IMG/VR virus record: IMGVR_UViG_3300027850_000003
Location: 65,970 to 129,969 of that record
DNA length: 64,000 bases
Reading direction: 5' to 3' (one strand)
Source: a virus
This document shows, piece after piece, positions 12,921-55,858 of the stretch; position 1 is the stretch's first letter, and every line of letters begins with the position of its first letter. Both the position numbers and the translations under genes were made by a program. The notes under the pieces were generated by a model that saw only the letters and a list, made by a program, of their open reading frames with translations, was not told the origin of the DNA and made no database searches.

Positions 12921-12924
12921 AAAT

Positions 12925-13203: not shown

Positions 13204-13209
13204 TATGAA

Positions 13210-21101: not shown

Positions 21102-21128
21102 GAATATATTCTATAAAATGTGTCAACT

Positions 21129-22907
21129 ATGAAATGTCAAATCAACGCACCAATCGAAGCTTTATATGTTAGTAATTTCTTAGATGAGATTCCTAAAGGT
21201 ATAGTAAATAAAGGAGCTTGTGGAGTAGGAATGAGTTCTATTGCTCTTGAAGATAATTATCCTACTATAATAGCTGTTCCTACTATTGAAGTTATTAAAA
21301 ATAAAACTGCCCAATACCCAAATAACAGAAGGTTAGAATCTGTATTCGGTTATTACGCAGATATTAAAGAGAAAAATCTAATTCACTATGTTAAGTCTAC
21401 CACAGTTCCTAAAATCTTAGTTACTTATGACTCTTTCCATAGGGTAGCTAAATTAGTAGATAAGAATAAATATCGAGTAGTAGTGGATGAATTCTCTGAT
21501 TTGTTAGATGCTTATAGCTATAGAGAAAAAGCTATTGAACATTTACTTACCTCAGTTCAAGAGTTTGATTATGTTAGCTATATCTCAGCTACTCCACTTA
21601 AAGAAGAGTATTATCCTGAAGCTCTTAAAAACCTTAATGAGTATGAGATAGTTTGGCAAGGTACAGTCAAAATTAAAGTTGAAAGAAAGAAAACTAATAA
21701 ACCTTATAAAGCTGCTTGTAATATTATCGACAGTTATCGAGCTGGAGGGGGAGAAGGATTATTGATGCCTAATGGTCACTATTCAAAAGCTGCTTATTTT
21801 TTTGTTAATTCAGTAAATTCAATTGCTAATATTCTAGAAGCTTCTGATTTAAATCCAACTGATGCAAGAGTTATTTGTGCTAATAACGAAGTGAATCAAA
21901 AAAAGCTAGAAAATTATCCAATAGAAACTGCTTTAGCTCCTGAGAAGAAGTTCAATTTTATTACTAGCACTGCTTTCAAAGGATGTGACTTTTACTCTGA
22001 GACTGGAGTTACTTATATTATTAGTAACACTTCTAACAGTAATACATTAATCTCGATTGATACGGATGTTAAACAAATAGCGGGTAGAATTCGTAACGCT
22101 AATAATCCTTTCAACAATCACATTTATCACATTTACAATACTGATAATTCATTACTATCTGCTGAGAATTTTGAGAAATTAGTACAAAAGAAAATAAAAG
22201 CTACTAACTCTATTATTTCAATGTTTTATAAAGGGAACGAAGATGAACGAGCTATTTGGTTAGAGAATTATTATTTGAAAGCTAAATGTAGATTTAGAGA
22301 TGACGACTATACTTATCTAACTGAAGAAGGAGATATTATTTTCAATGATTATGCGGTTCTAAATGATAAAAGAAGATGGGAAGTTTCTAGTAATGTTTAT
22401 CGAGATGGAGTGTCTATTAGACAAGCTTATATTGATGCTGGATGTTTTGATATTTCTACTTTCCAAGACTTTGAGAAGATTGAAGATGATGGGTTTCTTA
22501 GCAAACTTACTAATGGTAGTTTTAAAGAATATTGTCAGAGGTATATCAATAACTCAGATGAAAGACTTTATATTGGGGATAGATTCCCTGTTATTAAAGA
22601 AGCTTTTACTAAATTAGGTGAAGCTAGGATGAAAGCTCTTAGCTATAATGCCCAAAGATTTTTAGCTGAAATGCAAGCTACTTCGGATACTACAAAGAAC
22701 TACATAATTAAAGAATTAAAAGCGAATCTTAAAGTAGGGGAGGAATATGTCTTATCTGATATTAAGGGTTTACTCAATAGTCTTTACTATAAAGTAGGAA
22801 TCAAAAAGAAAGCTAAAGCTACTGAAATTGATAATTACCTTGAAGTTGAGAAACGACAGAGACGAGTAAATGGAGTTCTTAAAAACATGATCGTAATCAT
22901 TAAGTAA
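21129..22907 (+). CDS. SF2 helicase-like protein, paralog 1 (origin-binding-like architecture)
   Basis: NKGACGVGMS, VVVDEFS, SATP, QIAGRIR; ATG at 21129 preferred over GTG at 21120. Confidence 0.8.
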   Translation: MKCQINAPIEALYVSNFLDEIPKGIVNKGACGVGMSSIALEDNYPTIIAVPTIEVIKNKTAQYPNNRRLESVFGYYADIKEKNLIHYVKSTTVPKILVTYDSFHRVAKLVDKNKYRVVVDEFSDLLDAYSYREKAIEHLLTSVQEFDYVSYISATPLKEEYYPEALKNLNEYEIVWQGTVKIKVERKKTNKPYKAACNIIDSYRAGGGEGLLMPNGHYSKAAYFFVNSVNSIANILEASDLNPTDARVICANNEVNQKKLENYPIETALAPEKKFNFITSTAFKGCDFYSETGVTYIISNTSNSNTLISIDTDVKQIAGRIRNANNPFNNHIYHIYNTDNSLLSAENFEKLVQKKIKATNSIISMFYKGNEDERAIWLENYYLKAKCRFRDDDYTYLTEEGDIIFNDYAVLNDKRRWEVSSNVYRDGVSIRQAYIDAGCFDISTFQDFEKIEDDGFLSKLTNGSFKEYCQRYINNSDERLYIGDRFPVIKEAFTKLGEARMKALSYNAQRFLAEMQATSDTTKNYIIKELKANLKVGEEYVLSDIKGLLNSLYYKVGIKKKAKATEIDNYLEVEKRQRRVNGVLKNMIVIIK

Positions 22908-22999: not shown

Positions 23000-23200
23000 G
23001 ATAGTGAAGTTAAAAAATTATTTAGTGGGAAATCTGGTTTTTACTTATCTAAGGATATAAAAATTATACTGAGTTATCTTTATAAAAATTTAGGAGTGGA
23101 TAAGAAAGCTAAAGCTAATGATATAGAACCTGTTTTAAACGTTAAAGCTACTGCAAAAAAGATAAATAAAAAGACTGTAGTAGGTTACGAGTTGATATAG
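23000..23200 (+). pseudogene. Start-less remnant of the helicase C-terminal domain
   Basis: FYLSKDIKIILSYLYKNLGVDKKAKANDI..KINKKTVVGYELI* aligns with the C-terminus of 53441..55123; in-frame TGA at 22997. Confidence 0.8.
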
Positions 23201-23386: not shown

Positions 23387-23460
23387 TGACCCTGGTAGAA
23401 GTCGAATCTACAACATCCAAATTAGAAGTTTGGTACTCTGTCCAGTTGAGTTACAGGATC
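23387..23460 (-). tRNA. tRNA-Arg (anticodon UCU), no encoded CCA
   Basis: Cloverleaf: GATCCTG/CAGGGTC acceptor, ACTC/GAGT D-stem, CCAAA-CTTCTAA-TTTGG, GTAGA-TTCGACT-TCTAC. Confidence 0.92.
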
Positions 23461-32000: not shown

Positions 32001-35000
32001 TTAGAGAGAAAGAAGTTCAATTATCCATTGATGCGATTAACTCTCAGGTTTCTTTAACAGAGAAAGGTAGCACTCAAAGGTTAGCTCTTGAAACACAATT
32101 AATACAAGAAGTAAATAAGTTAGAAAAAACTCAACTAGATAATAGAAAAGAAAGACTAGAAGTAGCTCTTGAGAAAAAACGCAGACAATTAGAAACTGAA
32201 CAAATTACATTAGAAAAATCTACTATTAGAGGTACTACTGATAAAGATTTAGAAGCTGATAGACAACTAAAAGAAAAAGATATTAGAAACACTATTGATG
32301 CTTTAACTCAAAAGGCTAATATTTATCAAAAAGGTAAAAAAGAACGAATTGCTATTGAACAAGAAATAGCTAAAGAAACACTTAAACTAGATAAACAAGT
32401 CTTTGAAAATCAAAAGTCTAGATTACAAACTCAAATAGATAATCGTAAAAAAACTTTTGCGGATAGCCAATTACAGTTAGAAAAGTTGATGGTATTGGGA
32501 ACTTCTGTTGAAGATTCTAAGAAGGTTCGTGCGTCTAAAGAAGAAGAATTACAAATTAATATTGAAGCTATTAAAAAAGAGATTAACTTAACTAAAGAAG
32601 GCAGTAATCAGCGTAAAGACTTAGAACGTAATCTAAAAGGAGAATTATTAAAATTAGATAAGCAAAAAGTAGCTAACAAACGGGAGCTAATAGATGAAGA
32701 AATTAATCTTGAAAAAACTAAGATTAGTAAAATTCAAGCTCTTCTAGAACGTTCAACTATCAATGGTAGTTTTGAAAAAGACTTAGATAAGCTGAGAGTC
32801 CTAAAAGAAAAAGAAACTCAAATTAATATTAGTTCTATCCAAAAGCAATTAGCTACTTATAAATTAGGAGCAAAAGAACGCCTAACTTTAGAAGCTCAAC
32901 TAACCCAAGAAGTTACTAAATTACAGAAAATACAATTTGGAAATAAAAAAGAACGATTAGAATCTCAACTAGAAGACACAAGAAATAAATTAGACAAACA
33001 AGTAGCTATAAAAGAAGCTGCTCTAATTGATGGTGCAACAGAACAAGAACTCAAAGTAGTAGAAGAAACTAAGATTAAAGAAACTAAATTTACTATTGAT
33101 TCTGTTAAAAAGCAAATGGCTCTTTATAAGGAAGGTAGTAAGGAGAGGTTAGCATTAGAAGTTAATCTACAAAAAGAAATAAACAATCTTAGAAAGCAAA
33201 CATTGGATAAAGAAAGAAATTTAATCCAGAATAATTTAGACTTTAAGAAAACTAAAATTGATATATCCAATATTGAAGGAGAAAAGAAACTACTTCAAGG
33301 GGATATTGATAGAGAAACTTTTGAAGATAATATCTCTGCATCTAGTCAAAAAGTGAATCTACTCCAACAAGAAGCGTTTACTAAACAACTTAAACTATAT
33401 CAAAAAGGTAGTAAGGAATACCTAGAGATATTGAAGCAGGTATCTCAGTTACAAGTAGATTATCAAAAGTCTGTAGTAGATAAAGCTATTAGAGATATTG
33501 ATAGATTAACTAAGACTCAAAGTAATTCAATTGAAGCTCAAAAACAATCTATTAACAGACAAGTAAGTGCAAGTGACTCATTAACTAAAGAACTTCAAGA
33601 ACAAATTAAACTTGAGGATTCTAGAAGTTCAGTAATTAAAGCTACATCTGACTATCAAATTTCTATCCTAGAGCTAAGTAAAAGGTCTACTGGGGATATT
33701 GAAAAAAGAGCTAAGATTGATGTACAAATAGCTGAAATGAAACAGAAAGCTCTATTAGAAGGTCAAGAATTAGAACTAAACTCTATCAAAAATAATGAAC
33801 TAATTAATCGTTCTGCATTAGAAAGAGAGCGGATTCAGATTAGTCTTAATAGGTTAGAGTTAGATAGAACTAAACTACAGACTGAAGCAGAATTAAGAAA
33901 AGCTAAGTTGAATAAGTTAGATAAAGCTTCTATTGATGCACTTCAGCTACAGTTAGATTCAATTAATGATCAATACTCTGCATTAGGTAGAAGTGAAGAT
34001 TTAATCTCTACTCAAATATCTAATCAAGCTGAAATTAGTCAGAATCAGATCCAAGTAATTAAGCAGCAACAGGACTTAGCAAGACGTAACTCATCCCTTG
34101 ACGTTGAACAAGCTAAGCAAAACGTTATCATTGTAAGCTATGAAAAACAGCTTTCCCAACTGAAAATGAAAGGAACTCTGATAGAAGCTAATGCAAATAA
34201 AGAGAAAATGATAGGTGATATGCTAACTAAGGCTTATGACACTCAAATCTCTATTTTGAATAGTAGAAAAGAATTAATGGACTCAACATTGAGCTCTATT
34301 GATTCTCTTTATGGAATTGAACAGTCAATGGCTAAAAGTGACCTAACTAAGGACAAACTAGCTAAAGACCAGGCTAAAGATCGTTTAAATTTCTTAGAGT
34401 TCCAACAACGAATTGAGAGAGAAAGTTTTGATTTAGAAAAAGCTAAGAATAAAATTATTAGAGAAAGACAGAAAGTTGAGTTAGAGATGTTAGAGATTAA
34501 TTCTCGTCAAGCTCTTGCTACTGCTAAAGTTGAAGAAGCTCGTACTAATGCTCGTAAAGATGCTACTGATGAAGAGAAATTAGCAGCTAAACTTGCAGTA
34601 GAATCAGTAGAACAAGGAATATTAGCAGCAAAAACTAATAAGGAATTATCTCTTGAATTATCAAAAATAGAAGAACAATCTGAAAAAAATAAAGAAGTTA
34701 TTAATGCTCGTAATCAAAGAAATCAAAAGTTACAAGCTCAACAAGCTCTTGCTCAACTAACTTCTGATACTACAGATGACAGAGAAGTAGCAGGTAAAGC
34801 TAGACAATTCAGAGGGCAAGACCAAAATAGTTTAGCTAGTATTGCTACTGTATCCACTAAAGGTATTGATAAGATTATATCTGATTTTCAAAAAGCTATG
34901 GAAGCTAGAAAGCCAATTGATATAACTACTAATCCTGTAGATAAAATTAATGTTACATCCACTTCAAATATTCCTAGTGTTGGAGGGTTAAGTAAAAGCT

Positions 35001-35701
35001 CTAATATCTCTACTACTTCTACTTCTAAAAGTGAATCTCCTATAGATAAAGAGAATAAAAAAGAAGAGACTAAGAATAATAGTGAAAATGTAGCTATTTC
35101 TATTACTAATTTACAAAAATCATTAATAGATAAATTACAGTTGACTACTAACACTTTGGTTGAGACTCTTAAGGGTAATACTACTCAGCTACTAGATAGT
35201 AGTAAATCAGTATACAACCTAATTAATGTATCTGGTAAAAATATTAGCAAGCTCTTAAGTGACACTGCTAAAATAATTACTGGTGGAGTATCTAAACCTA
35301 AAAAAGGAACCATTATTAAAGACCAAGATGGTCAAGAAGATAGTATTGCAGTAGATGACCCTAATAGGAAAGGTGGAATTACTACTACTAAAGAACCCTT
35401 AATAGATTCACTTAAAACTGTTAGACAAAGTGTTGATTCTTTTAAATTATCTTTTGATAACTCTAATCAAATTAAAAAAAATGAAGCAGATAGAAGACAT
35501 AAGGAAGAGTTAGATAATACTACTACTCTTAATAGAAATATTGAAGAGCTAGTTAAAGTAGTAGAGGAATATATAGTTAAAGGTGGCAATGTGACTGTTA
35601 ACTCACCTATAACTATTCAAGGTGGAAATAAGGATACTGGATTAGATATTAATACTCACTTATATAATTTAGCAACTAAAATCGAAAGGAGACAAAAGTA
35701 A
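26015..35701 (+). CDS. Tail tape measure protein
   Basis: 3228 aa, helical/coiled coil, TMP core (AYQAASGG), hydrophobic segments, 89-aa repeats. Confidence 0.9.
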   Translation: MDTSSNIKFNVEGDDKFSKFLEKTQKSLKELSEKTLKTFSAGFKSSSAEITNSQKAVEKLLVEYNKLSKNTLTLNKATQTLTKSFGLAFAAFGAYTNVIQAKAYFDVVLGGVLEIREALEKTGRGLNLMAASGYDAAPLVNTFGEIAAVITGNQEAIENFTTKSTLAFNSFEQKLNEVNIVFGLSKERLSEYGDALQNGLEKNLKNSVSSLTALNAAYQAASGGFTEFQQNQDVVNLAIKANKAAPGSDLYQLGGAISKGAGLLETKDVKELEVVTAKWLATEQLGLTTVGEMTEYLTGMYSALKNAGVGTNKLVDETQGLVVAFTKLGAKVPEITTQMEAFSRNTISKTPEAQKALEGLVDAQGKAITLNQEYFKDKGIVQGILDFAEAVGYNTEKIKEVYNETNAFNFAMKVLAQNGKLAKDSIESISKVTSENLTEAFDSATSSSQAKMEQITNSYDEIMISFGKAFKQRSQEGIESVEIYKKLLVTFKDPLIKIAETSIAVFDNISKVTGVLGAVAKTIISIGGSLLSFKAFGLILGGLTNGFKDLRKESSVIKDLYTSNQGLVAIGKQVLGIDQQKLLSQDRINKAIANSSTLERELTNSIGKTNEARASSITAVQKEIDAIVARDNSVIKGQANVAKIEESLQKKQDKSRGLQDQVVETEGTVSTTENLKKTIDTKLADDIGNVQRFKKLEELNAKESLIRQGEIGDREKAQLKQINSEKLRLNNTYSNTTLNELKDLEKQKDVIRAKSNKREKDFVDLAKLRTKELEVLANEKEKQKTRTPLTDKEKSNLSKASADLTNKINQEELVLLSQRQKLQEANNLVDKESEKLNKARVKETENLNRVTKATTELAVLQQDLNTKKTTSDRVNIATEIQNQKLYSLQKDLRKEQNTLDKIRNKDSQEYQQQLQKISKLQEQEAAQQSTVQKARTTQQLAQKEYNKADVEARTKLRELTKQQGLAEGSLISLKTKSGEITFKNTAFNRGIISSVEGYGKTITALQTPFESFGKLQDKLKNKVIDLKTQISQTGAEAKVELDAAGNKILTTSQKISNSFKSIGESFKGALISTGIGLVIGAVIGLGVKLVQIGQEQAKLDKIYKEFNITLEESATKFDRANISFDTGTQGLSKFGDRIENSKKLMLETSSVWDALGSTVMKVVDLIVFNFTKLSPGGILLSSMWNSWSDAAFTKRAAKMSQVSDFIQVYELSLRGQNKELEKGNLLTETSNQKIKNKMILTGEDLEREKAANSTRIESFQSMTDVQKKQLEQLKSIGDKLTDRDKAQISILEAEISRREKLVEVSKKQFENQLKYQEARNLLIDRENKFSNEQVSLNELKTLQGEVDSSQTTLNANISSGLDIYSSSIKDSTIKSKQFLSDLKDGSLSVKASIKSLGGEIYKVGEDSKVVSQLPADVLKSIQDAIKGKEVDGKKYSLEQVLNLKETRDALTTAGVEIPKDLKVLADKMKKSYEASEGELQLINLKDLEKDLAGFSVLSDKYQEKKRQFLSTTKDDIGATTFSTSLRKSLRLAETDLQNFNNALDASSKGANKFVTSSTQKFTEQALKGTLDLTEGLKELGKVESEIDPKQLGKLKDAITGKNKDEILSALKEIGVTTEQTLSADSIDFNKFEAGITTFVESLNAVAESGEISSEEVAKKFESFYDQMKGKVTPAAYKDLTETLIGYEKAASTQRINLITMETNALEQQKKYGLVLEEDYIKDVNNLNIKTTEENINNKKIELKRLLSLYKESAPQIVKAKAELESLELDLNAQKSNNPIEIAKSQSKARFDVLKKDLELGNVTKRQYIEEELRDSKNLYSIQLSEKQKTLSELMKDEVKNAKAIKALRKSMELDEKDFNLNLLEINRRRIEEQFKMQTNALGKRDLKAREAAINGTTKAELESNRQLERDKISLNIQSLQARLAIEKKGSDKFLEIERQLVEAQLSLRETQVKQGKDRVNESIEAKRTELSTIAALEERNNLKGTSDESLEKTRKLREKEVQLSIDAINSQVSLTEKGSTQRLALETQLIQEVNKLEKTQLDNRKERLEVALEKKRRQLETEQITLEKSTIRGTTDKDLEADRQLKEKDIRNTIDALTQKANIYQKGKKERIAIEQEIAKETLKLDKQVFENQKSRLQTQIDNRKKTFADSQLQLEKLMVLGTSVEDSKKVRASKEEELQINIEAIKKEINLTKEGSNQRKDLERNLKGELLKLDKQKVANKRELIDEEINLEKTKISKIQALLERSTINGSFEKDLDKLRVLKEKETQINISSIQKQLATYKLGAKERLTLEAQLTQEVTKLQKIQFGNKKERLESQLEDTRNKLDKQVAIKEAALIDGATEQELKVVEETKIKETKFTIDSVKKQMALYKEGSKERLALEVNLQKEINNLRKQTLDKERNLIQNNLDFKKTKIDISNIEGEKKLLQGDIDRETFEDNISASSQKVNLLQQEAFTKQLKLYQKGSKEYLEILKQVSQLQVDYQKSVVDKAIRDIDRLTKTQSNSIEAQKQSINRQVSASDSLTKELQEQIKLEDSRSSVIKATSDYQISILELSKRSTGDIEKRAKIDVQIAEMKQKALLEGQELELNSIKNNELINRSALERERIQISLNRLELDRTKLQTEAELRKAKLNKLDKASIDALQLQLDSINDQYSALGRSEDLISTQISNQAEISQNQIQVIKQQQDLARRNSSLDVEQAKQNVIIVSYEKQLSQLKMKGTLIEANANKEKMIGDMLTKAYDTQISILNSRKELMDSTLSSIDSLYGIEQSMAKSDLTKDKLAKDQAKDRLNFLEFQQRIERESFDLEKAKNKIIRERQKVELEMLEINSRQALATAKVEEARTNARKDATDEEKLAAKLAVESVEQGILAAKTNKELSLELSKIEEQSEKNKEVINARNQRNQKLQAQQALAQLTSDTTDDREVAGKARQFRGQDQNSLASIATVSTKGIDKIISDFQKAMEARKPIDITTNPVDKINVTSTSNIPSVGGLSKSSNISTTSTSKSESPIDKENKKEETKNNSENVAISITNLQKSLIDKLQLTTNTLVETLKGNTTQLLDSSKSVYNLINVSGKNISKLLSDTAKIITGGVSKPKKGTIIKDQDGQEDSIAVDDPNRKGGITTTKEPLIDSLKTVRQSVDSFKLSFDNSNQIKKNEADRRHKEELDNTTTLNRNIEELVKVVEEYIVKGGNVTVNSPITIQGGNKDTGLDINTHLYNLATKIERRQK

Positions 35702-36306
35702 TGGCTACTCAATTTCAAGATATAGATGACCCAGTAATCTTAGGACATCATGGCAGAGAAGATGATTTAACTAAATGTTTTCCTCTTCATCGTAAGGTAT
35801 GCTTCTTAAATGAAAAAAATCTCTTAGCAGGAACTGAGATAGGAGATGAAGTATTATACGATATAAATGGGAAATCCTATATTTGCTTATTTGTGGAGTC
35901 TAACGCTTATCAAGTAACTAATGAAGGTGAAGCTACGAGAATGGCTTCTACTGGTTCTGGTTCTTATGTTAAATATTCTCTTATTCGTAAAGGATTCACT
36001 GCTCAATTTGATTATACTACTACTGATGTATTAGTTTCATTAGATAAAATTGCTAAGGATGCTATAAGAGAAAGGAAGTTCGTGGAAGTGATTGATTATG
36101 TTAGACCTGAGACTAAGGATTATGATAAAGGATTCACTATTCGTAAAGGGCTGATTTATTTACCTCTTATTTATTCAGGACTAATGAGCGGACAGAAGGA
36201 GGATACTTATAATGGAAGTAAGATTACTAAACCTACAACTAGACCTATTATTACTCCTGAAGGATTCTCTCTTACCTTTGCTGAAAACTCTTATAGGATA
36301 GGTTAA
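35701..36306 (+). CDS. Tail tip/distal tail protein (putative)
   Basis: Stop/start overlap with the tape measure gene. Confidence 0.5.
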   Translation: MATQFQDIDDPVILGHHGREDDLTKCFPLHRKVCFLNEKNLLAGTEIGDEVLYDINGKSYICLFVESNAYQVTNEGEATRMASTGSGSYVKYSLIRKGFTAQFDYTTTDVLVSLDKIAKDAIRERKFVEVIDYVRPETKDYDKGFTIRKGLIYLPLIYSGLMSGQKEDTYNGSKITKPTTRPIITPEGFSLTFAENSYRIG

Positions 36307-36476
36307 ATATAAAGAAATTAGACGATAGGTTCGTCAGTAGCTAGGTAGTTTTAGATAGATTAGAAGAAAATGAAAAGGGTGTCGGTTAAAATGATACCCT
36401 TGGAGGTAGACAAGAAACTGGTATTATCCACTATTTTAGAAAATTACCTTAAGAGTAAAACCAAATAATTTTGCTA

Positions 36477-36502
36477 AACTGATGACAAAGTATAATTGTT
36501 GT
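36477..36502. repeat. Left 26-bp inverted repeat of helicase 2
   Basis: AACTGATGACAAAGTATAATTGTTGT, perfect reverse complement of 38371-38396. Confidence 0.95.
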
Positions 36503-36510
36503 AGTATAAT
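36482..36510 (+). promoter_or_regulatory. Sigma70-like promoter overlapping the inverted repeat
   Basis: ATGACA-17 nt-TATAAT. Confidence 0.55.
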
Positions 36511-36550
36511 GTAGATAGACAAGAACAAAAGTTTATCGCCAAAACAAAAA

Positions 36551-38335
36551 ATGCAACATAACATTATCGAAGCACCAATTAAAGCCATCTACCTAAGTGA
36601 GTTTCTTACTGAGTTACCTCAAGGAATACTAAATAAAGGGGCAACTGGAGTAGGAGGGACAGAAATGGCTCTTAAATCATCAGAGTCTTATATAATAGCT
36701 GTTCCAACAATAGAAATAATAGTTAACAAAAAGAATCAGAACCCAGAGATAGTAGAAGTTTATGGAGATACTACATTTAAAGAGTTTTCAAAACAGATTA
36801 AAAGTAGAGTCAAGTATAAGATTTTCACTACTTATGATTCACTTCCTAAAACTATTAATTGGCTTACTTCTTTAAGTACCAACCCATATAAAACTAGATT
36901 ATTAGTTGATGAATACCACAAAATACTAAATGATTATAGCTATCGTGATAAGGCAATTGATAATCTACTAAAACAAGCGAGTAAATTTGAGTATGTAACT
37001 TATTTATCTGCAACTTCTATTAAGCCTAAGTTTACTCCTAGAATATTAGAATCTCTTGATTATACTGAGATTAAATGGTCTACTAAAGAGATTAAATTAC
37101 ATCGGAAGAAAACTCCTAATCCTTTTGCTGCAGTAGTTAAAATTATTACTAGATACAAAGCTAATAATTACCAGATGAAAATCAATGGTCATATTAGTAA
37201 TGAAGCATATTTCTTTGTGAATTCGGTTAAGTCAATTAAAGATATTATTAACAACGCTGGACTTACTCAAGATGAAGTGAAAATTATATGTTCTACTACT
37301 GATAGAAATCAACACATACTAGATGATTTTGAGATTGGAAATGTTCATGATCCTAATAAACCTTTTACGTTCGTTACTTCTAAATCATTCCTTGGAGTAG
37401 ATTTTTACTCGGATAGTGGAGTCATTTACGTTGTTAGTAATGTTAATAGAAAAAATACTCTACTAGATATTTCTACTGATATCACTCAAATAGCTGGCAG
37501 GATTCGTAATATCAATAACCCATTCAAAGATACTATCTTCCATATTTATAATACTGGGATACAAGAGCTAAGCCAACAACAGTTCAAAGATAATATTGAA
37601 AAGAAAATTGAAAACACTAATATTCAAATCAATGTCTTTAACAATAAGTTAGAACCAAAAGAAAAAGCTGCTTTCTTAGTTCGATATGAGTTAGATATCG
37701 AAAAAGATTACAGCTATTACAATCCGGAAACTAATGAATTAGAGTTTAATGAACTTAAAAAACTAAATGAGGAGTTTAACTACGAAGTTCTATTCACTAT
37801 TTATAATAATGGTATTAGTATTCGTCAAGGATATTTAGAAGCAGGATTTACTCTTGAAGGAAACCAAGAATATGAAAAAGTAGAAAAAGATTTCTTAGCA
37901 ACTGCTACTAGCATAAGTTATCAGTCAATGTTAAAGCAATATGTGGAATTAATATCTCAAAAAAATCTTAGTTCTGATGACCAATATACTTTAAATAGTA
38001 TTGATAAGTTAGATCCTACTATTAAGAAAGCAGTAGATATTTTAGGAACCTCTCGTATTAGAACTCTACGATATCATAAAAGTAAAATAACTAATGAACT
38101 TTATTATAACTCTAACCAAGTTAAAGAAGCTATTAAAAGTAGTTTAGCTAAGAAAATAGAAAATAATAAATTTTACAGTTTCAATGAGTGTAAAGCTTTA
38201 CTTAGTGACATTCATATCATTCTTAAAATAGATAAAAAATGTAAAGGTAAAGATGTTTTAAGTTATTTAGAAGGAAAAGTTATTAATAAACGAATAGAAG
38301 GAATCCTACTTCAAGGATGTATTTTTGAGGACTGA
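36551..38335 (+). CDS. SF2 helicase-like protein, paralog 2
   Basis: NKGATGVGGT, LLVDEYH, SATS, QIAGRIR. Confidence 0.8.
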   Translation: MQHNIIEAPIKAIYLSEFLTELPQGILNKGATGVGGTEMALKSSESYIIAVPTIEIIVNKKNQNPEIVEVYGDTTFKEFSKQIKSRVKYKIFTTYDSLPKTINWLTSLSTNPYKTRLLVDEYHKILNDYSYRDKAIDNLLKQASKFEYVTYLSATSIKPKFTPRILESLDYTEIKWSTKEIKLHRKKTPNPFAAVVKIITRYKANNYQMKINGHISNEAYFFVNSVKSIKDIINNAGLTQDEVKIICSTTDRNQHILDDFEIGNVHDPNKPFTFVTSKSFLGVDFYSDSGVIYVVSNVNRKNTLLDISTDITQIAGRIRNINNPFKDTIFHIYNTGIQELSQQQFKDNIEKKIENTNIQINVFNNKLEPKEKAAFLVRYELDIEKDYSYYNPETNELEFNELKKLNEEFNYEVLFTIYNNGISIRQGYLEAGFTLEGNQEYEKVEKDFLATATSISYQSMLKQYVELISQKNLSSDDQYTLNSIDKLDPTIKKAVDILGTSRIRTLRYHKSKITNELYYNSNQVKEAIKSSLAKKIENNKFYSFNECKALLSDIHIILKIDKKCKGKDVLSYLEGKVINKRIEGILLQGCIFED

Positions 38336-38370
38336 TGATAAATATAGTAGATACTAGGAGTCGTTTAACA

Positions 38371-38396
38371 ACAACAATTATACTTTGTCATCAGTT
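38371..38396. repeat. Right 26-bp inverted repeat of helicase 2
   Basis: ACAACAATTATACTTTGTCATCAGTT. Confidence 0.95.
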
Positions 38397-38411
38397 ATAA
38401 AAATTATAGTT

Positions 38412-38440
38412 AAGGAGGTAGAATATAAAACTACCTTTTT
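38412..38440. terminator. Terminator between convergent genes
   Basis: AGGTAG/CTACCT stem plus T tract. Confidence 0.6.
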
Positions 38441-38446
38441 CTCCCT

Positions 38447-38659
38447 TTAAAATAGCTCTAAGTCTTTTAAGAGATAATCTTTCGACTTTAATTTTTTTTC
38501 TTTATTTTGTCTAGCGTTATCCCTATAAAATAAGCTACACTGCTGTAAATAATCTACTACTTCTTTTTCTAATGATTCAGGATACTTTCTAATTAAATAT
38601 TCTAACAAGCTACGACATTCAATAGCAAGTATTATTTTATCAAACTCTTCAAAACCCAT
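38447..38659 (-). CDS. Hypothetical protein
   Basis: 70-aa ORF. Confidence 0.5.
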   Translation of the reverse strand: MGFEEFDKIILAIECRSLLEYLIRKYPESLEKEVVDYLQQCSLFYRDNARQNKEKKLKSKDYLLKDLELF

Positions 38660-38680
38660 TTTAATTACTCACCAGTACAA

Positions 38681-38950
38681 TTAATCATTTACCACATACT
38701 CTTTAGCTATTATTTCTTCTAACTTATAAGACTTTTTAAGCTTTTTTAGTTTACTCATGGTTGATAGACTTTCTTGGCTCATTACCTCCTGTCTTTTCTG
38801 TATAAGTGAAATATCAATAGTAATTATATCTATCATTATTTTAAATTCTTCATAAGCATCTAAGTCTAATATCTTCCTCTTGAGGTATTTAATATTATTC
38901 TCTAACTTTGCTAAATATTCTTGGAGTAATTGGTCTAACTCTTTATTCAT
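38681..38950 (-). CDS. Hypothetical protein
   Basis: 89-aa ORF. Confidence 0.5.
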   Translation of the reverse strand: MNKELDQLLQEYLAKLENNIKYLKRKILDLDAYEEFKIMIDIITIDISLIQKRQEVMSQESLSTMSKLKKLKKSYKLEEIIAKEYVVND

Positions 38951-38982
38951 GTTATTTTAATTGTATAGCTTTTTAATTACTT

Positions 38983-39345
38983 ATGTTCCAAATTATAACT
39001 AATAATACTACTCCAGATATTTATATCGAAGATAAACAATTAATCTCTATTCCTTGTTTCTATCTTACTAATGGAACTTCTATGACTAGCTTTGCTCCTA
39101 TGTTCAATATAGAAAGCACAGAAGAAGATTTATTAGACATAGAGGAATTTAGTTATGTATTATCTACTACTCCTTCTCAATATCAAATGTTCGAGATAAG
39201 TATAAATGACCTAGAACCCTTAGACGATATTTCTAGCCTATATATAAATGGAAGTAAATATCAGAATCTCTTAGAGGTAAAAGATTTAGTCTTAAATACT
39301 ACTCAACAAAATATTACTACAATAGAAGAAAGAGAATCTACCTAA
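38983..39345 (+). CDS. Hypothetical tail-region protein
   Basis: Coupled (TAATG) to the next gene. Confidence 0.5.
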   Translation: MFQIITNNTTPDIYIEDKQLISIPCFYLTNGTSMTSFAPMFNIESTEEDLLDIEEFSYVLSTTPSQYQMFEISINDLEPLDDISSLYINGSKYQNLLEVKDLVLNTTQQNITTIEEREST

Positions 39346-42029
39346 TGACTACTAAACAAATTCCCTTAAATAATATCCTCAACACTTTTAACGAATTACC
39401 CTTAGAACAAATAAATAAATTAGCTGCTTCTCCTGGTACTTTTCTTTATAACCCACTAACTAAAAAAATTCTATTATGCTGTAAAGTTAACACTAAAATT
39501 ACTAATGACCCTCAACCTCTTAAAATACTAGGTAACAAGGAGATATTTATTAGTAATCAAATAGAGCTTCCTAATTTTATAGTAGAACATAAATTAGTTG
39601 GAGGATTTACTCTTAGTAGAAGTTTTGAAAATCATCCTTCTATTGGATTTAATTTGATATGTAGTAGAGATGAGATATTAGCCTTAAGAGGTAAATTTAG
39701 AGATATTGAAAAGAAATATGTCTTCTACGATACCCCTTTTCGATTAACTAATTACTCAGAAGATATAGAGAATAGAAGTGAGCATCCTATAGGTTCTTAC
39801 TCTATTAGTTTATCTTTTGAGGGTTGGTATTCTAAGCTAATCAATACACCTTTCTTTGTTAAAAATAGAGGCAGTCTAACAAGTAGTCAAAACTTTGAAG
39901 CTCCTGAGTGTAAAATTGAGGGAAGCAATATTCCTAAATCTGGTCTGTCTAACTCACTTAATAAGCCTAATGAGTTAGTAATTCCTCTTAGTAGTTTTGC
40001 TAGTAGATTAGGGTTTAACTATTTAGGCTATAACTTTCTATGTAATTATCAGAAACCAGTTGCCCCAGATTTAACTACTACTTTTGCTAGTGAATTAGAT
40101 AGTAGAAAAAGAACTAAAGGACTTTATACTCTTTTTTCTTCTAATGAGGGGGTTAAGACTATTACTTGGGCTAAACCTTCTACTTTCAAAGTTAAGGAAA
40201 GTAAAATTATTAGTAACGTTTCTTACTCGGATAACTTAGCAGAATTAGGGTATAAACCTAGTGAGTTATCTTGGAATCAATCTGGAGAAGAACCTTTAGA
40301 TAATCAAGAAGAAGATACTTTTCAAAATACTCAACCTTCTTGGCTTCAATTAAATATAAAAATTAAAGAAAGTATTCTTGACCCAGATAACGCTACCTCT
40401 CCTCCTAATGACCAAGGATTGATTAAGACAATGGATCTTAACTATGATATGTCAGGAAAGACTAAGATTAAAACTTTTACTAGGAGAGAAGGAACAACTA
40501 TCTTATGGGAAAAAATAGAGACTTGGGGATTTATGTATCTATCCAAAGAAATAGTAATAACGAGAGACGGAGAAAAGATAATTGAAGCTTCTCCTAGTAA
40601 TTATTGGGGACTTACTGAATCTCAAGAGACTACTCATCTATACGATTCTGTTACTGGGTACTACTTAGGAAATAAGATTAGTGGTTGGAAAATGTGTCGC
40701 TTCAAACAAGAATCTTCTACTGAAACAGCTAAACTAGAAATAGAAAAAGAAGGGTTAGGAAACCCTCTTAGTAAAGCTTATGAGGAAGATGTAGTAGTTA
40801 GAGGAGAAAAAGTATTTGAATTAAATGAAGTGGTGGACTGTTATAGATTTAGAGCCGTCCCTATCATTGGTGGAACTCAATATATCTTAAGACAATTGAG
40901 AGATTATTATCAAGATTCTAACAATTCAACTCCTAGTATTCCTTATCAAGTATGTACTAAAGATGGAAAATTAATTACTAAATATGCAATTGACCCTACT
41001 TGGGTTGAGCCTATGTATATTGGAGAAGAATATAATTACTACTCTTGTTATTCTAGGATTGAAGACCCTGCTAATATTGCTTTAAGAAGAGAGTTTAGAG
41101 ACTCCCCACCAGAAACTCCTACTGATAACCCTATTTATAATCCCACATTATCTACTGGTAGAGAACAAGAAGTATATAAAAAAGTATTTATCCACAGGAG
41201 TAAAGGCACTATCCAAGAAGAAGGATTAGGTTTTTCCTCTTCTGGTAGTTCAGTTAAAGATAATTTTATTGGAGATGACAAAGATGGAGTAGAAGATAGA
41301 TATGAAACTCATGTAACTCAACGTTCTGCACAAGATAGTAATTTTAGAAATGCTACTACTACTATTACTGTTGAAGAATCTACTGGTAGACCAGGAGAAC
41401 CTGGAAGAAAACAATTACCTTTTGTACTTAAAACTGAAGAAAGTCTTAAAGAAAACTCAGATATCTATTTCCAAATGATAGAGACTAAGAGAGTGGATAA
41501 GACACAAGAGCCTAAAGATAGCTATAAATACCTCTTAGTTACTCAAGGATATAACGTTAATGACCCAGTACAAGGTTCCGTTTCTTATAATACTAGACAT
41601 AAATCGGAAGCATTTTTAGGAGCTATTACTGATTTAGAAATAGAAGATATGAATAGTAATTGTTCTATCTCTTTTACTACTTTATTTAGACCTAAAATTA
41701 TAGAAGGAAGTAAACTTAATTTTAGTTACTCTTGGGATTCATGGAAGACTAGAGTGATAAGTAATAGTTCCTCAGTTAATATAGTTGGTTATCTTGAATT
41801 AGAAGATGGAACCTTACTCACTGAAGTCACAGGCTCCACTAATTTAAGCTTAGGAATTGATAGTAGTTTGGGAAGCTTGACCTCACTTAAAAAAATTAAA
41901 TTACCAAAAGAACCTGCTCAACCAGAAGTATCTCCTAATAAAAACGATGCTTATATTTTTAATATGTATACTCGTGGTAAAGAACTAGGTAAAATATTCT
42001 ACGGATTTGGTTCTAGATATAGCGGTTAA
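39345..42029 (+). CDS. Large tail tip/baseplate-hub-like protein (putative)
   Basis: 894 aa, beta-rich, position after tape measure. Confidence 0.5.
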   Translation: MTTKQIPLNNILNTFNELPLEQINKLAASPGTFLYNPLTKKILLCCKVNTKITNDPQPLKILGNKEIFISNQIELPNFIVEHKLVGGFTLSRSFENHPSIGFNLICSRDEILALRGKFRDIEKKYVFYDTPFRLTNYSEDIENRSEHPIGSYSISLSFEGWYSKLINTPFFVKNRGSLTSSQNFEAPECKIEGSNIPKSGLSNSLNKPNELVIPLSSFASRLGFNYLGYNFLCNYQKPVAPDLTTTFASELDSRKRTKGLYTLFSSNEGVKTITWAKPSTFKVKESKIISNVSYSDNLAELGYKPSELSWNQSGEEPLDNQEEDTFQNTQPSWLQLNIKIKESILDPDNATSPPNDQGLIKTMDLNYDMSGKTKIKTFTRREGTTILWEKIETWGFMYLSKEIVITRDGEKIIEASPSNYWGLTESQETTHLYDSVTGYYLGNKISGWKMCRFKQESSTETAKLEIEKEGLGNPLSKAYEEDVVVRGEKVFELNEVVDCYRFRAVPIIGGTQYILRQLRDYYQDSNNSTPSIPYQVCTKDGKLITKYAIDPTWVEPMYIGEEYNYYSCYSRIEDPANIALRREFRDSPPETPTDNPIYNPTLSTGREQEVYKKVFIHRSKGTIQEEGLGFSSSGSSVKDNFIGDDKDGVEDRYETHVTQRSAQDSNFRNATTTITVEESTGRPGEPGRKQLPFVLKTEESLKENSDIYFQMIETKRVDKTQEPKDSYKYLLVTQGYNVNDPVQGSVSYNTRHKSEAFLGAITDLEIEDMNSNCSISFTTLFRPKIIEGSKLNFSYSWDSWKTRVISNSSSVNIVGYLELEDGTLLTEVTGSTNLSLGIDSSLGSLTSLKKIKLPKEPAQPEVSPNKNDAYIFNMYTRGKELGKIFYGFGSRYSG

Positions 42030-44248: not shown

Positions 44249-46717
44249 ATGGCTGTAACTTACGCAAATAGTAGAATTGTTTTACCTAATAGTTGTTGGA
44301 GCATCGCCTCTACTACAGGAGGTCAACTTTCTGCTAAACCTTTATACTTCTCACTTCAAACAGAAAATAGAGTAGGAAGAAATTTATTATTAATATCTTC
44401 TCTTATTAATATTTCTAACTTTGGGAAAATAACTATAACTATTAATTCTCAAGCTAAATTGCCTGCTGAAGAGATATTTAATTATATTATAGGAGCTAGT
44501 AGCTTTTCAAATCCTAATACTTTTTCTCAGATAGCTAAAATACCAATTAGTTCATCTACTACATTTCCTATTGTCTTAGAGATTACTAAAGATGTATTTT
44601 TAAGAACTGGTCATATTACTTCAGAAGATATTACTAATATTCTTAGTTCTGATTTACTTCATGGAATGTTGATTGGTTATACAGTGACAGGACTAATTTA
44701 TGAGTATGACAACTTCGATTCTACTTCTGTAATAGATAATCAATTAGTTCTTTCTACTACTACTAATAAACGATTTAAGGCTAGAGGAAGCTTCTCAACG
44801 TATATTTCCTCAGTTTACGATATAGATGGCTCTAGACTCGATTTAAGAGAGTCTAATGAAATTACTCCAATATTAAATAGTTATAATCCAGATGGAAGTG
44901 ACTCTTCTTCTATTAACCTATGGTTAGATAATCCTAGTGGAATAGTAGTAGCAGGAACTCGAATAACTCTAATAGTTAAGATAAATGAGCTAATAAAGAC
45001 TAACTTATTTGATAAAAAGATTCGCTATATATTTAATGGAGTAGTAAATCTTAATACTTGTGAGTTAAGGACTACTAAGAGAGATGGAATTACACCTTTT
45101 GAAAAACTAGGAATTCCCTTAACTTTTAATAGTAATACTCCTAATTTTAATATTGAGGAATATTTAGAGATAGGTGAAGCGTTATCTTTTAGTATTTACC
45201 TTAATTTCTTAGGAGCAGAGATAAATGATTTTTTACCTGAAAAAGCGGTTATATCTATCTATCCTTCTTTCGTTTCTAATATTGGTAGTTACGTTGCAGG
45301 TTCAGAAGTAATAGGGGATTGTATATTTCCTGATGGGGGAAGGAGAAGAGTGTTACCTTCAACTACTATTTCTGGACTAGAAGTATTGAGCGGTTCAGGA
45401 TTAATTAAGAACTACACTTTTCCTTTATTGCCTAAGACTACTATTTTAGGTCTTATACCAAATACAGATAATCAAAAAGTATTTATTAGCAACTTAGGAA
45501 ATTGTTTTGTAGCTCCTACTGATGTACCTAATAATTCTGCTATAAGAGCTTTTGTGTCTACTAAGAGTGGGCAAACATCTTCTAGTAGTTGGAGTAGTTA
45601 TATTTCTATCACTCAAAATAGTAATTTTACTTTAACTCTTACTCTTCCCACTTCTATTAGGAGTGATTATCCGGATGTTATTGCAACTACTACTTCTACT
45701 TTCTCTATAGGGAAATATATTGTATATGTGCAAAGGCAATCTAACTTAGAGATAAGAAAATTTGAGATTACTTATAATAGTAATACTCCTAATAATTTAT
45801 ACTCTGTAGTTTTACCAGATTGGAGTACAGGGATAGTAACCACTTCTATCCCTACTAATATAGATAATACTTTTAACCTTTACTCTTTACCGTATTTTGT
45901 AGTAGATAATGGATTAGGAAGTGGATTCTCTATTGGTAATTATAGATTCTGTGTCTCTTATAGTTATGATGGAAATCAAGTAACCTCTATAAGTCACGAT
46001 GTAGCTAGAGGATGTATTGTTGAGTTAGATATGCCTTTATCCCAAGCTCTTAACAATATGAAGTATTTAGGAGAACCTTTATTTATGGGACAATTATTAG
46101 CCTTAGACACTACATATATCCCTGATGGACAAAGGAGATATCTTAAGGGAACTGATAATAGTTACTTAGACTTAGTGTTTAATAAATATATGACTGGGGT
46201 AGCTAATAATATTAATATTTTTAGACCTAATAATATTGCTGCTACTTCACCTGGTATTTGGAAAGATAAAGAGTCCGGATTAGACTTAGATCAAGTAACT
46301 CAATATGTGTACTCTTCTATTTATCCTAACCTCTCTACTCTTAATGATTTAATTAGAACAGTCGATGATGGTATTATTCCTTTAATCTTAGCTTTAGGAG
46401 GTGGAGGTGGAAGTGGTGAGTCTCCTACAATTTACCCTTTAATAACTGTTAATGCTACTACTATTTCTCCTGATTTAGATATAAGTGATAAATATTTCTT
46501 TAATACTACTGGGACTCTTAGTAATATCAATAATCCACTAAATATAAATAATGGAGATAAATTTACTATTCAGACTAATAATACAGGAGTTTATAATTTT
46601 GGTAGCTCTTACCACTTACCAGAGAACTATACTTCTGTTATACTTGATGGGAAAGCTAATATAGAGGCAACTCGAAGAGGAACTTCTACTGATATAATTA
46701 TTTATAGTGTTTGGTAA
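44249..46717 (+). CDS. Tail structural protein (putative)
   Basis: 822 aa, S/T/N-rich beta protein. Confidence 0.55.
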   Translation: MAVTYANSRIVLPNSCWSIASTTGGQLSAKPLYFSLQTENRVGRNLLLISSLINISNFGKITITINSQAKLPAEEIFNYIIGASSFSNPNTFSQIAKIPISSSTTFPIVLEITKDVFLRTGHITSEDITNILSSDLLHGMLIGYTVTGLIYEYDNFDSTSVIDNQLVLSTTTNKRFKARGSFSTYISSVYDIDGSRLDLRESNEITPILNSYNPDGSDSSSINLWLDNPSGIVVAGTRITLIVKINELIKTNLFDKKIRYIFNGVVNLNTCELRTTKRDGITPFEKLGIPLTFNSNTPNFNIEEYLEIGEALSFSIYLNFLGAEINDFLPEKAVISIYPSFVSNIGSYVAGSEVIGDCIFPDGGRRRVLPSTTISGLEVLSGSGLIKNYTFPLLPKTTILGLIPNTDNQKVFISNLGNCFVAPTDVPNNSAIRAFVSTKSGQTSSSSWSSYISITQNSNFTLTLTLPTSIRSDYPDVIATTTSTFSIGKYIVYVQRQSNLEIRKFEITYNSNTPNNLYSVVLPDWSTGIVTTSIPTNIDNTFNLYSLPYFVVDNGLGSGFSIGNYRFCVSYSYDGNQVTSISHDVARGCIVELDMPLSQALNNMKYLGEPLFMGQLLALDTTYIPDGQRRYLKGTDNSYLDLVFNKYMTGVANNINIFRPNNIAATSPGIWKDKESGLDLDQVTQYVYSSIYPNLSTLNDLIRTVDDGIIPLILALGGGGGSGESPTIYPLITVNATTISPDLDISDKYFFNTTGTLSNINNPLNINNGDKFTIQTNNTGVYNFGSSYHLPENYTSVILDGKANIEATRRGTSTDIIIYSVW

Positions 46718-51968: not shown

Positions 51969-52505
51969 TTATTCTTCTAAATAATCTTTACTAGAAACCC
52001 ACTTAAAATGATCCAAAGATAAGACTTGACTAACACTACTAATTAATAAAGGATTATGCACTGCACAGATTATTTGCTTAGTAGTAGACTCATCTTTCAA
52101 AAACTTAGATAACTTTTTAATAGATTTAATAGATAACGCTAAATCTGGTTCATCTACTAAAACGGCTACATTATCTTCTAACTTAGATATTGTCCTTAAT
52201 ATTGAGTTATTTGATTCTCCATGACTATGAAAGATAGAAGCGATTTGAGAAAGAGTTTCTATTCTACCTTTAGTTCTAGGATTACCATGTTCTAAATCTA
52301 GATAGCAACAATCATTATATTCATCAGTTTCTACTGTTACATCTATCTTTTCTCCTGCTATTTTTTTCCCAAAGATTACTTCTAATAAAGAAGATTTTCC
52401 ACTACCATTGTCTCCTACTAATAGATTTAATCCTTTCTTAAAAGTAAATATCTGCCCCTTAGTAAACTTTCTAAAATTAGAGTTAAAGGTTATTGATTTT
52501 AGCAT
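51969..52505 (-). CDS. ABC/AAA-type ATPase
   Basis: GDNGSGKSS, SHGE, LVDEPDLALS, AVHNP. Confidence 0.85.
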   Translation of the reverse strand: MLKSITFNSNFRKFTKGQIFTFKKGLNLLVGDNGSGKSSLLEVIFGKKIAGEKIDVTVETDEYNDCCYLDLEHGNPRTKGRIETLSQIASIFHSHGESNNSILRTISKLEDNVAVLVDEPDLALSIKSIKKLSKFLKDESTTKQIICAVHNPLLISSVSQVLSLDHFKWVSSKDYLEE

Positions 52506-53131: not shown

Positions 53132-53219
53132 AGTTCACTGATACTAAAATAAAGAATATTAAATAAGTCTCATTCTTTCTCTCGCTTTGACTCGTTCTCT
53201 CATTCCTATACTATGACTT

Positions 53220-55123: not shown

Positions 55124-55858
55124 CACCTCTACTCCTTTAACAAGTTTACCTTTTAACCTAACAGTTTTATATTTAACTTCTGCGTAATTAGCTATATCAA
55201 TAGCTTTTCCTTTCTTTGCAATATCTAGTTTTTCATAAATATTATTGAGAGTATTTTTAACAAAAGCTAGAGAATAGAAAGTCTCTATATCTAAAAGTCG
55301 AATGAGTTCATCTTTAATACATTGCTGAATATCAGTGTTATTAAATTTAAGCTCATCTATTAATCTATTAACAAGATAACCTAAAGCTTTCATTCTCTTG
55401 GCTCCTAATTTAGTAAAAGCCTCTCTAATAATAGGAAATCTATCACCAATATAAAATCTTTCATCTGGGCTACTAATATACTTCTGACAATATTCTTTAA
55501 AACTACCATTAGTAGGAAACCCATCATCTTCAATCTCTTCTACCTCGTATTTTTCTGGTAATTCTACTTTAATTGTTACTCCACCTAAATAAACTTTTTC
55601 TTTATTAAATGTAGGATGCAGAGTATTAATTAAATAAGTCTCAATAATATCTGAGTCTGCTAGAGATTCACAAGGATAATACTCAATTACATCTATTAGT
55701 GATTTCCATTCCTGATACTCTGGATCATTAGGATTAAAATGATCATTTAGCCTACTTCTAAGATTTGAGCTTCTACCAACATAAGCTAGTTCATTTTTGA
55801 CATAAAGAAGATAAACCCCAATTTTTTCTTTTAACGGTTTTAAATGAAACTTAATCAT
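55067..55858 (-). CDS. GIY-YIG nuclease fused to the helicase C-terminal module
   Basis: GVYLL..YVGRSSNLRSRL..E..LINTLHPTFN; C-half highly similar to paralog 1 from IEDDGF onward. Confidence 0.85.
   Translation of the reverse strand: MIKFHLKPLKEKIGVYLLYVKNELAYVGRSSNLRSRLNDHFNPNDPEYQEWKSLIDVIEYYPCESLADSDIIETYLINTLHPTFNKEKVYLGGVTIKVELPEKYEVEEIEDDGFPTNGSFKEYCQKYISSPDERFYIGDRFPIIREAFTKLGAKRMKALGYLVNRLIDELKFNNTDIQQCIKDELIRLLDIETFYSLAFVKNTLNNIYEKLDIAKKGKAIDIANYAEVKYKTVRLKGKLVKGVEVLNYYLISFYCFIVYFSIT

Follow-up and report, generated by a model that had tools for sequence, protein, structure and literature searches.

The shuffling of accessory genes among phages is well known, and the cis-elements that define the shuffled cassettes have been described for few groups only. 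Here we describe a family of phage genes encoding helicase-like proteins, several members of which lie between long inverted repeats. The analysis started from one member, P2, situated in the final 64 kb of a contig of 129,969 bp from an uncultured freshwater phage (G000; IMG/VR record IMGVR_UViG_3300027850_000003, positions 65,970 to 129,969). This whole 64,000-nt stretch is called the window, and coordinates are those of the window unless the contig is named. An earlier note had pointed out that, in the unit 36477-38396, a helicase gene is enclosed by perfect 26-bp inverted repeats, like a transposon devoid of a transposase. Below, the two copies of such a repeat are called arms, and the gene together with its arms a cassette. 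A literature search (supplementary files excluded) returned several parallels and no description of a repeat-enclosed helicase cassette.

The origin-binding helicase UL9 binds inverted boxes in its origin, and the herpesvirus origins OriS and OriL are palindromic. P2 is similar to UL9 in having a superfamily 2 (SF2) helicase core followed by a C-terminal domain, and UL9 is its best structural match, but P2 has no detectable sequence homology to UL9 and lacks the Walker A lysine. Moreover, the UL9 origin is compact, whereas the repeats of P2 lie 1.9 kb apart with its own gene between them, and the family has from two to at least five copies per genome. A UL9-like phage helicase has been described in T5, namely D2 (PMC3632103).

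With respect to organization, the closest parallel is found in T4-type phages, in which the PeSL (promoter-early stem-loop) cassettes of hyperplastic regions hold accessory genes between a sigma70-like promoter and a terminator stem-loop; these units are inserted, deleted and replaced between close relatives by recombination (Arbiol et al. 2010, PMC2839356). The P2 unit that is present or absent in populations likewise spans promoter to terminator. However, the PeSL motif is a shared one with about 50 copies per genome; these copies are direct repeats, and recombination between them excises mini-circles (PMC2839356), whereas the repeats described here are inverted, private to each cassette, perfect over up to 39 bp and tied to one protein family. 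A further parallel is provided by Odn of phage ICP1, a GIY-YIG-superfamily nuclease that carries the origin-binding domain of the PLE initiator, cuts iterons and was proposed to drive the swapping of replicon modules (Barth, Nguyen and Seed 2021, PMC8263062). In the present phage, too, a GIY-YIG nuclease and an initiator-type protein share a module, here predicted to bind DNA, and an initiator with its cis-sites would form a swappable unit in which sites and binding domain diversify rapidly. The two cases differ in that Odn and PLE oppose a phage to a satellite with an RepA_N-type initiator and tandem iterons, while ours concerns a single phage genome, an SF2 helicase and putative sites placed in inverted orientation around its gene.

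The repeat and its recurrence in the helicase family

The arms of P2 match at 28 of 29 bases (97% complementary), lie 1862 nt apart and contain the perfect 26-bp repeat announced in the earlier note (36477-36502 and 38371-38396). With up to three mismatches allowed, this 26-nt core has exactly two sites in the window (0/100 shuffles). It is present twice in the whole 129,969-bp contig, and no copy was detected among IMG/VR viral contigs, so that the search for additional copies that the note had suggested gave nothing beyond the two arms. When gaps are allowed, the inverted similarity covers about 46 columns, from -86 to -42 before the ATG against +30 to +72 after the stop codon. The features of this cassette are the following:

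36477-36505, plus strand: left arm, 29 nt with one mismatch, including the perfect 26-nt run at 36477-36502
38368-38396, minus strand: right arm, including the perfect 26-nt core at 38371-38396
36463-36476, plus strand: imperfect outward extension of the left arm (ATAATTTT...), with its partner at 38397-38410, from the gapped flank alignment
36482-36510, plus strand: sigma70-like promoter match ATGACA-17-TATAAT (11/12), overlapping the left arm
36551-38335, plus strand: paralog P2, encoding a 594-aa SF2 helicase-like protein with a C-terminal module at about aa 446-594
38331-38342, plus strand: half-site that overlaps the TGA stop codon and repeats the outer 12 nt of the arm for a third time (ACTGATGATAAA)
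about 38412-38445, plus strand: terminator-like hairpin (AAGGAGGTAG...CTACC, then a T-run), which ends the unit and abuts the stop codon of a converging 70-aa open reading frame (ORF)
36471-38445, no strand: presence/absence unit of 1975 bp, comprising promoter, helicase gene, both arms and terminator hairpin

P2 is the sole ORF of at least 60 aa inside the unit, in agreement with the note, and the left arm does carry the -35 box of a promoter match. This match, by consensus only, is the best sigma70-like one in 36250-38750, a region that as a whole contains 10 sigma70-like sites against 13.8 expected from shuffles. In the contig, GTATAAT and TGnTATAAT are enriched upstream of genes, and no such enrichment was seen for the Bacteroidota-type promoter motif TAnnTTTG (0.81 vs 0.56 per kb). 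The right arm also holds ATGACA and GTATAAT elements, directed into the gene. The terminator-like hairpin was recognized in the fold and in the sequence and is not listed by a simple terminator scan. As for the half-site, which had been described as overlapping the stop codon and pairing with the right arm, both its position and, in an RNA fold of 38320-38460, its pairing were recovered (dG -29.2, z -2.5), but as a DNA hairpin it is no better than shuffles (z -0.86). Its 12-mer, with up to one mismatch, occurs four times in the window against 1.06 expected, a number reached by one of 100 shuffles.

The contig encodes five full paralogs of the helicase gene (A, B, P1, P2 and P3, with 32-50% identity) besides three partial C-terminal matches. 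Its three longest exact inverted repeats within 6 kb, of 39, 31 and 26 bp, each surround one of these paralogs (A, B and P2), the next repeat being 17 bp long. The comparison was extended to four related phage records, namely this contig, G001, G002 (150 kb) and G003 (146.5 kb, with direct terminal repeats), by means of a gene-spanning repeat score, obtained from gapped alignment of the 300 nt upstream of a gene with the reverse complement of the 300 nt downstream. The 555 control values came from 400 mismatched flank pairs (maximum 36) and from 155 non-helicase genes of at least 200 aa of this phage, G002 and G003 (maximum 34). Seven of the 12 full helicase copies in these records score above all controls: A (84, with 400-nt flanks), B (83), P2 (62), the third copy of G002 (59) and, among the loci of relatives, L008 (53), L012 (45) and L009 (41). 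Two others, L016 (36) and L007 (35), are borderline. A chance origin of the repeat is ruled out by the shuffles, by the contig-wide ranking of repeats and by the flank-score controls.

Arms that abut the ORF, at about -70 to -5 and +1 to +65, were seen in B, L012, L009 and the third G002 copy. In L007 and L008 the right arm likewise reaches the stop codon, but the left arm is found some 72-134 nt ahead of the start codon. In some relatives the arms are degenerate, as in L016 (47 nt at 72%) and L008 (69 nt at 71%). An exact-match scan of 61 homologue loci had detected repeats of only 9-15 nt, against 8-14 nt under the null, and had suggested that the repeat was unique to this contig; this was overturned by the gapped alignments, which revealed the degenerate repeats. 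Protein relatives of P2 at 75-95% identity exist, and a metagenome scan for close relatives of P2 found one 2.4-kb contig only, 48% identical and without a gene-spanning repeat.

Some additional repeated sequences were observed around the paralogs. In cassette A (L003, contig 12156-14277) a direct second copy of the promoter-like region follows immediately after the stop codon, about 250 nt without an ORF separate this copy from the right arm, and a DUF932 gene adjoins. Two motifs with 94% identity lie outside the cassettes, one of 33 nt, inverted between the upstream regions of P1 and P3 (20827-20859 and 53220-53252), and one of 47 nt, inverted between the upstream regions of P3 and B (window 53164-53210 and contig 60419-60465).

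Presence, absence and relocation

The presence of the P2 cassette was followed in the assembled contigs of four sequencing runs (X1-X4) from the Logan data, in which minority forms are invisible when they are not assembled, the data being contigs and not reads. X1 is the probable source run, and X2 is a run of another study with a divergent strain. In X1 the main form has a depth of about 220, and a 1130-bp contig of a minor form (depth 16.7) passes from 36470 to 38446 through 54 other letters. In X2 the joint of 36470 to 38446 is the dominant form (depth 230, one contig) and the helicase body has a depth of 6, and X3 has a joint of 36470 to 38681. From the joint found in both X1 and X2 it follows that the indel unit is 36471-38445. 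Its left end is 6 nt beyond the left arm, and on the other side it reaches 49 nt past the right arm, to a point directly behind the terminator hairpin. Because it takes in this hairpin, the unit fits a promoter-to-terminator segment better than it fits the repeat itself. The correspondence between the boundaries of the variable region and the repeats, which the earlier note had regarded as decisive, was found to be partial: the left breakpoint falls next to the arm, but the right one does not, and the variable region seen against more distant relatives (36307 to about 39040) is much wider than the repeat.

Next to the left junction, the minor X1 form and the dominant X2 form have 951 other letters in place of the 103 nt between 36319 and 36423, and a 48-nt island (36423-36470), of which no other copy was detected in IMG/VR, is kept in both forms between the two alternative segments.

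Comparison with the related phages G002 and G003 gave a similar picture at the level of loci. The 3228-aa gene and the genes o201, o120 and o894 are kept in both at 39-81% amino acid identity, with no helicase between o201 and o120, and DNA homology is lost from the o201 stop codon (36306) to about 39043. At the site of P1 (o253/o146) there is a gap of about 260 nt in G002 and G003, and at the site of P3 (o99/o995) a gap of 30 nt in G002, which carries a P3 orthologue, 86% identical, at a different locus. The locus of B is occupied by an A-type copy in G003 and by another type in G002. The number of helicase copies is two in G003, three in G002 and at least five in the present contig. These data bear out the proposal of the note that the helicase genes are discrete, variably present elements. 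Given that the P1 and P3 sites are empty or the gene is relocated in relatives, paralogs without repeats appear to be as mobile as those that bear them.

The helicase-like protein, its C-terminal module and the arm motifs

The P2 protein is predicted to fold like the origin-binding helicases of the UL9 type. Its AF2 model (pLDDT 84.9) matches SF2 helicases with E values of 1e-8 to 1e-11, the best structural match being UL9 (PDB 9hgi), and in BFVD about 10 of the 50 matches listed are replication origin-binding proteins of herpesviruses and giant viruses. Consistent with the SF2 assignment, the proteins have two RecA-like domains and motifs II (DExx), III (SAT) and VI (QxxGRxxR), and among 29 sequences the residues D120 and E121 (motif II), S153, A154 and T155 (motif III) and Q313, G316, R317 and R319 (motif VI) are invariant; an invariant lysine, K29, lies four residues upstream of the canonical position of the Walker A lysine. 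The Pfam DEAD profile is matched by 10 of the 29 members (best E 1.7e-6), P2 itself having sub-threshold Pfam matches only. Neither P2 nor two small neighbouring ORFs had a match in PHROGs or NCBIfam, and a profile search against PDB sequences gave nothing relevant for P2, with no detectable sequence homology to UL9. Relatives of the helicase occur in Bacteroidota (atlas), a few of which have a BT4734-like domain fused at the N-terminus, and distant homologues are present in single copy in Acinetobacter, Edwardsiella and Psychrobacter phages.

The C-terminal module of the protein (about aa 446-594) evolves faster than the helicase core, as seen from the identities of module and core in three pairs: 52 vs 73% for P2/L016, 35 vs 67% for P1/L009 and 32 vs 57% for P2/B. 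The same module is found outside the helicases, since two of the three partial C-terminal matches in the contig are ORFs in which it is fused to a GIY-YIG nuclease domain, and one more such fusion is present in G001. These ORFs, the paralogs without long repeats and a module remnant are listed here:

55067-55858, minus strand: 263-aa ORF with a GIY-YIG nuclease domain and the helicase-type C-terminal module, the module being closest to that of P1
contig 45064-45879, minus strand: 271-aa ORF with GIY-YIG fused to the same module
21120-22907, plus strand: paralog P1, 595 aa, no long repeat, five TGACATA sites at most 200 nt from its ends
53441-55123, plus strand: paralog P3, 560 aa, no flanking repeat
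23030-23197 (contig 88999-89166), plus strand: 56-codon remnant of a helicase C-terminal module just 3' of P1, with 28 nt identical to paralog A

The GIY-YIG assignments were made by Pfam and NCBIfam domain matches. A modelled fusion protein has a UvrC-like GIY-YIG domain (E 4e-4), and its C-terminal module is well predicted. Small stand-alone GIY-YIG ORFs were also found, 25 nt from the right arm of B and 114 nt after the third G002 copy, an arrangement reminiscent of the Ssn GIY-YIG single-strand nucleases, which are associated with inverted-repeat elements that lie around genes (Chenal et al. 2025, PMC11893778). Compared by domain matches only, the two situations differ in that the Ssn repeats are short hairpins, many per genome, whereas here a single long-range pair surrounds the helicase and not the nuclease.

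The flanks of the cassettes change almost completely between orthologues. The pairs P1/L008 (79% nucleotide identity), A/L012 (71%) and P3/L063 (80.5%) can be aligned only over the ORF plus 25-50 nt on each side, and even so A, L012 and L008 each have a repeat of their own. P2 and B have the same layout with unrelated arm sequences, and the arms of A, B and P2 are mutually unrelated, each private to its cassette. These comparisons suggest that the two arms of a cassette evolve in concert. In P1, only a relic of an L008-type right arm is left.

Short motifs are nevertheless conserved in flanks that are otherwise unalignable. The 12-mer of P2 has three copies in its cassette and was found near no other fetched homologue. 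TGACATA, which also makes up the arms of L008, occurs 16 times in the contig, five of them no more than 200 nt from the ends of P1 (binomial 1.2e-9), and AAAAAGTAA is common to A and L012 at -66, -20, +5 and +50.

Candidate explanations and further features of the contig

To account for these observations, we tentatively favour an explanation that we regard as possible rather than probable, in which the arms carry sites for the C-terminal module of the cassette's own protein, the cassettes are exchanged by recombination, possibly stimulated by nucleases, and the arms are kept matched by gene conversion. The P2 cassette would then be self-contained, with its own promoter, a UL9-like SF2 helicase bearing a fast-evolving predicted DNA-binding module and its own terminator, and its arms would be arrays of putative binding sites, with ACTGATGAYAAA as a candidate core site in three copies. 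The protein would load at, or bridge, both ends of its own gene, an arrangement that might work as an origin-like site for initiation or as a loop for autoregulation. Cassettes would be gained, lost and relocated within variable intergenic islands by recombination, plausibly stimulated by the neighbouring GIY-YIG nucleases that have the same C-terminal module, and gene conversion within a cassette would keep its arms identical and could also flip it. In a bolder version, which we consider rather unlikely, the repeat-enclosed helicase would be a portable replicator-initiator module, that is, an origin-like palindrome split by the gene of its own origin-binding helicase, with several specificities per lytic genome, swapped between phages and engaged in an arms race with "origin-directed" GIY-YIG nucleases that captured the binding module.

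Several observations do not sit well with the favoured explanation. A perfect match of 26-39 bp far exceeds the needs of a binding site, and long repeats are missing from part of the family: P1, P3 and L063 have repeat scores of 18-22, 49 distant homologues (25-29% identity) have scores of 19-32 with no gene-spanning repeat, and seven cellular homologue loci (Hymenobacter, Bacteroides) have flank scores of 16-27 with no repeat. The structural match to UL9 has a low TM-score (0.35) with a small margin over Brr2 and RecQ helicases. In place of the Walker A motif GxxxxGK[ST], all five paralogs have GxGxGx[ST], with G, M, L or C replacing the lysine, which makes ATPase or helicase activity uncertain. 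The matches of the C-terminal module are mostly to winged-helix DNA-binding domains and are not significant (E 0.08-1.3). The motif AAAAAGTA is shared by L007, L009 and the A type, though the modules of L007 and L009 have only 21-26% identity to the A type; because this motif type departs from module similarity, it may belong to a promoter and not be a binding site. Finally, one X2 contig (389 bp, depth 53) that joins 38251-38395 (plus) to 36478-36290 (minus), as a flipped cassette would, could be an assembly path through the repeat.

Among the other explanations, one is that the repeats have no function and are by-products of recombination or duplication in hyperplastic regions, for instance an inverted copy of the 5' flank at the 3' end, perfect at first and then decaying. 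The range of arm quality, from perfect (A, B, P2) through degenerate (L016, L008) to absent (P1, P3, L063), together with the right-arm relic in P1, would be expected from such decay, and the construction of the region from alternative segments (the replacements of 951 and 54 nt) fits it as well, as do the mismatches in the arms of seven repeats, which have no compensatory pattern (6 G-U pairs in the sense reading, 7 in the antisense reading and 48 others). Neutral relics, however, would hardly occur in 7 of 12 copies of one family and in none of 155 other genes of the same phages, nor would they retain the same layout after complete turnover of the arms, as in P2/B and A/L012, or short motifs in flanks that no longer align, and for these reasons we find this explanation doubtful. 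The arms might instead act as RNA, either as a long stem that is formed by the 5' and 3' flanks of a read-through transcript and shuts in the ORF, serving as an RNase III site or masking the ribosome-binding site, or with the right arm as an antisense promoter copy. The arms of B, L012, L009 and the third copy of G002 do cover the Shine-Dalgarno region and its complement, the right arm of P2 precedes the terminator hairpin and would be transcribed, its promoter-like elements face into the gene, and it folds together with the half-site as RNA. On the other hand, the best promoter match would start transcripts downstream of the left arm, B has no local hairpin equivalent to that of the P2 half-site (z +1.0), and, since G-U pairs are not favoured among the mismatches (13/61), the degenerate arms give no sign of RNA-type compensation, which makes an RNA role quite improbable.

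The resemblance to transposons with terminal inverted repeats (TIRs), stressed in the earlier note, lies in a single gene enclosed by perfect repeats within a discrete unit that is polymorphic for presence in populations, with a left breakpoint near the arm that recurs in three runs and copies at different loci in related phages; such an element could be mobilized by its own helicase-like product or, in trans, by an enzyme whose gene lies elsewhere. As the note itself had stated, no target-site duplication was found (no direct repeats beside the arms of A, B and P2 or at the indel ends) and no transposase, DDE or HUH motif in the P2 unit, where the sole Pfam match, to ResIII, is below threshold; the contig is an incomplete genome, and no contig-wide search for DDE families was made. 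Neither Resolvase (PF00239) nor Phage_integrase (PF00589), that is, no serine or tyrosine recombinase, was matched in the 130-kb contig. TIR transposons have multi-copy termini, whereas these arms are single-use in the contig and in IMG/VR, and no terminal motif is common to the paralogs. The repeats are not exactly terminal, the indel ends differing from the arm ends, above all on the right; in most relatives the ribosome-binding region lies within the arms, which directly border the ORF, and paralogs without repeats relocate as well. The likeness of the cassettes to transposons of this kind is not supported, and true TIRs, whether mobilized in trans or by the helicase-like protein, seem to us an improbable origin of the arms. 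A gene-size segment between perfect inverted repeats is also the classical substrate of inversion, by which recombination between the arms would flip the gene as an on/off switch, and the junction in the 389-bp X2 contig is the one expected from the flipped form. That contig comes from a divergent strain, however, and no flipped-type junction occurs in the X1 contigs; L007 and L009, which are orthologous cassettes in colinear flanks, do not differ in orientation; the contig has no invertase or integrase among the two recombinase families searched; and, with the -35 box in the arm and the -10 box moving with the segment, the gene would be expressed in either orientation. A programmed switch seems very unlikely.

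Under the favoured explanation, in which the arms are the protein's own sites, the family would offer a natural set of orthogonal pairs of protein and DNA site, and the initiator-mimicking nucleases would represent a second independent case, after ICP1 Odn and PLE, of such enzymes shaping the modularity of replication-type genes. Were the arms instead recombination relics, the family would still exemplify genes that are positionally mobile in lytic phages without a transposase. In either case we are dealing with a family whose matched inverted repeats are private and turn over together with a fast-evolving, predicted DNA-binding module, beside nucleases that have borrowed this module.

With regard to the phage itself, the major capsid protein has 30% identity with homologues of Pseudanabaena phages, and GenBank phages have no DNA similarity to window 35000-40000. 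Bacteroidota and Cyanobacteria are candidate host groups. CheckV estimates the completeness of the contig at 42%. The orthologues of the genes at its two ends (contig 1-1870 and 129190-129969) are adjacent in G002, with a P3-type helicase between them, and because the last and first genes are neighbours there, the contig probably represents a nearly complete genome (about 146-150 kb) in permuted form and not 42% of a jumbo phage.

The variable islands that contain P1 and P3 also encode tRNAs, tRNA-Arg(TCT) at 23387-23460 (minus) in the former and tRNA-Tyr(GTA) at 55962-56042 (minus) in the latter, and both islands with their tRNAs are missing from the syntenic sites of G002 and G003. The P3 island further contains a 178-aa ORF (51969-52505, minus) that G002 and G003 equally lack; its matches are confined to the N-terminal P-loop portion of ATPases of the SMC/RecF/AbiEii type. 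A second small multi-copy family was recognized by a 303-nt direct repeat with 80% identity (window 56187-56486 and contig 4518-4820, also contig 125949-125994) and by three paralogous ORFs of about 136 aa (contig 4422-4841, 122069-122479 and 125615-126010). The 3228-aa ORF upstream of P2 (26015-35701, plus) has 63-68% identity in G002 and G003, and secondary tblastn matches suggest that it contains internal repeats. The window also includes a 573-aa ORF (61500-63221, minus) in which a sulfotransferase domain is fused to a family-2 glycosyltransferase domain. Auxiliary genes of this sort are unusual in phages, and this one is conserved in G002 and G003 (51% identity).

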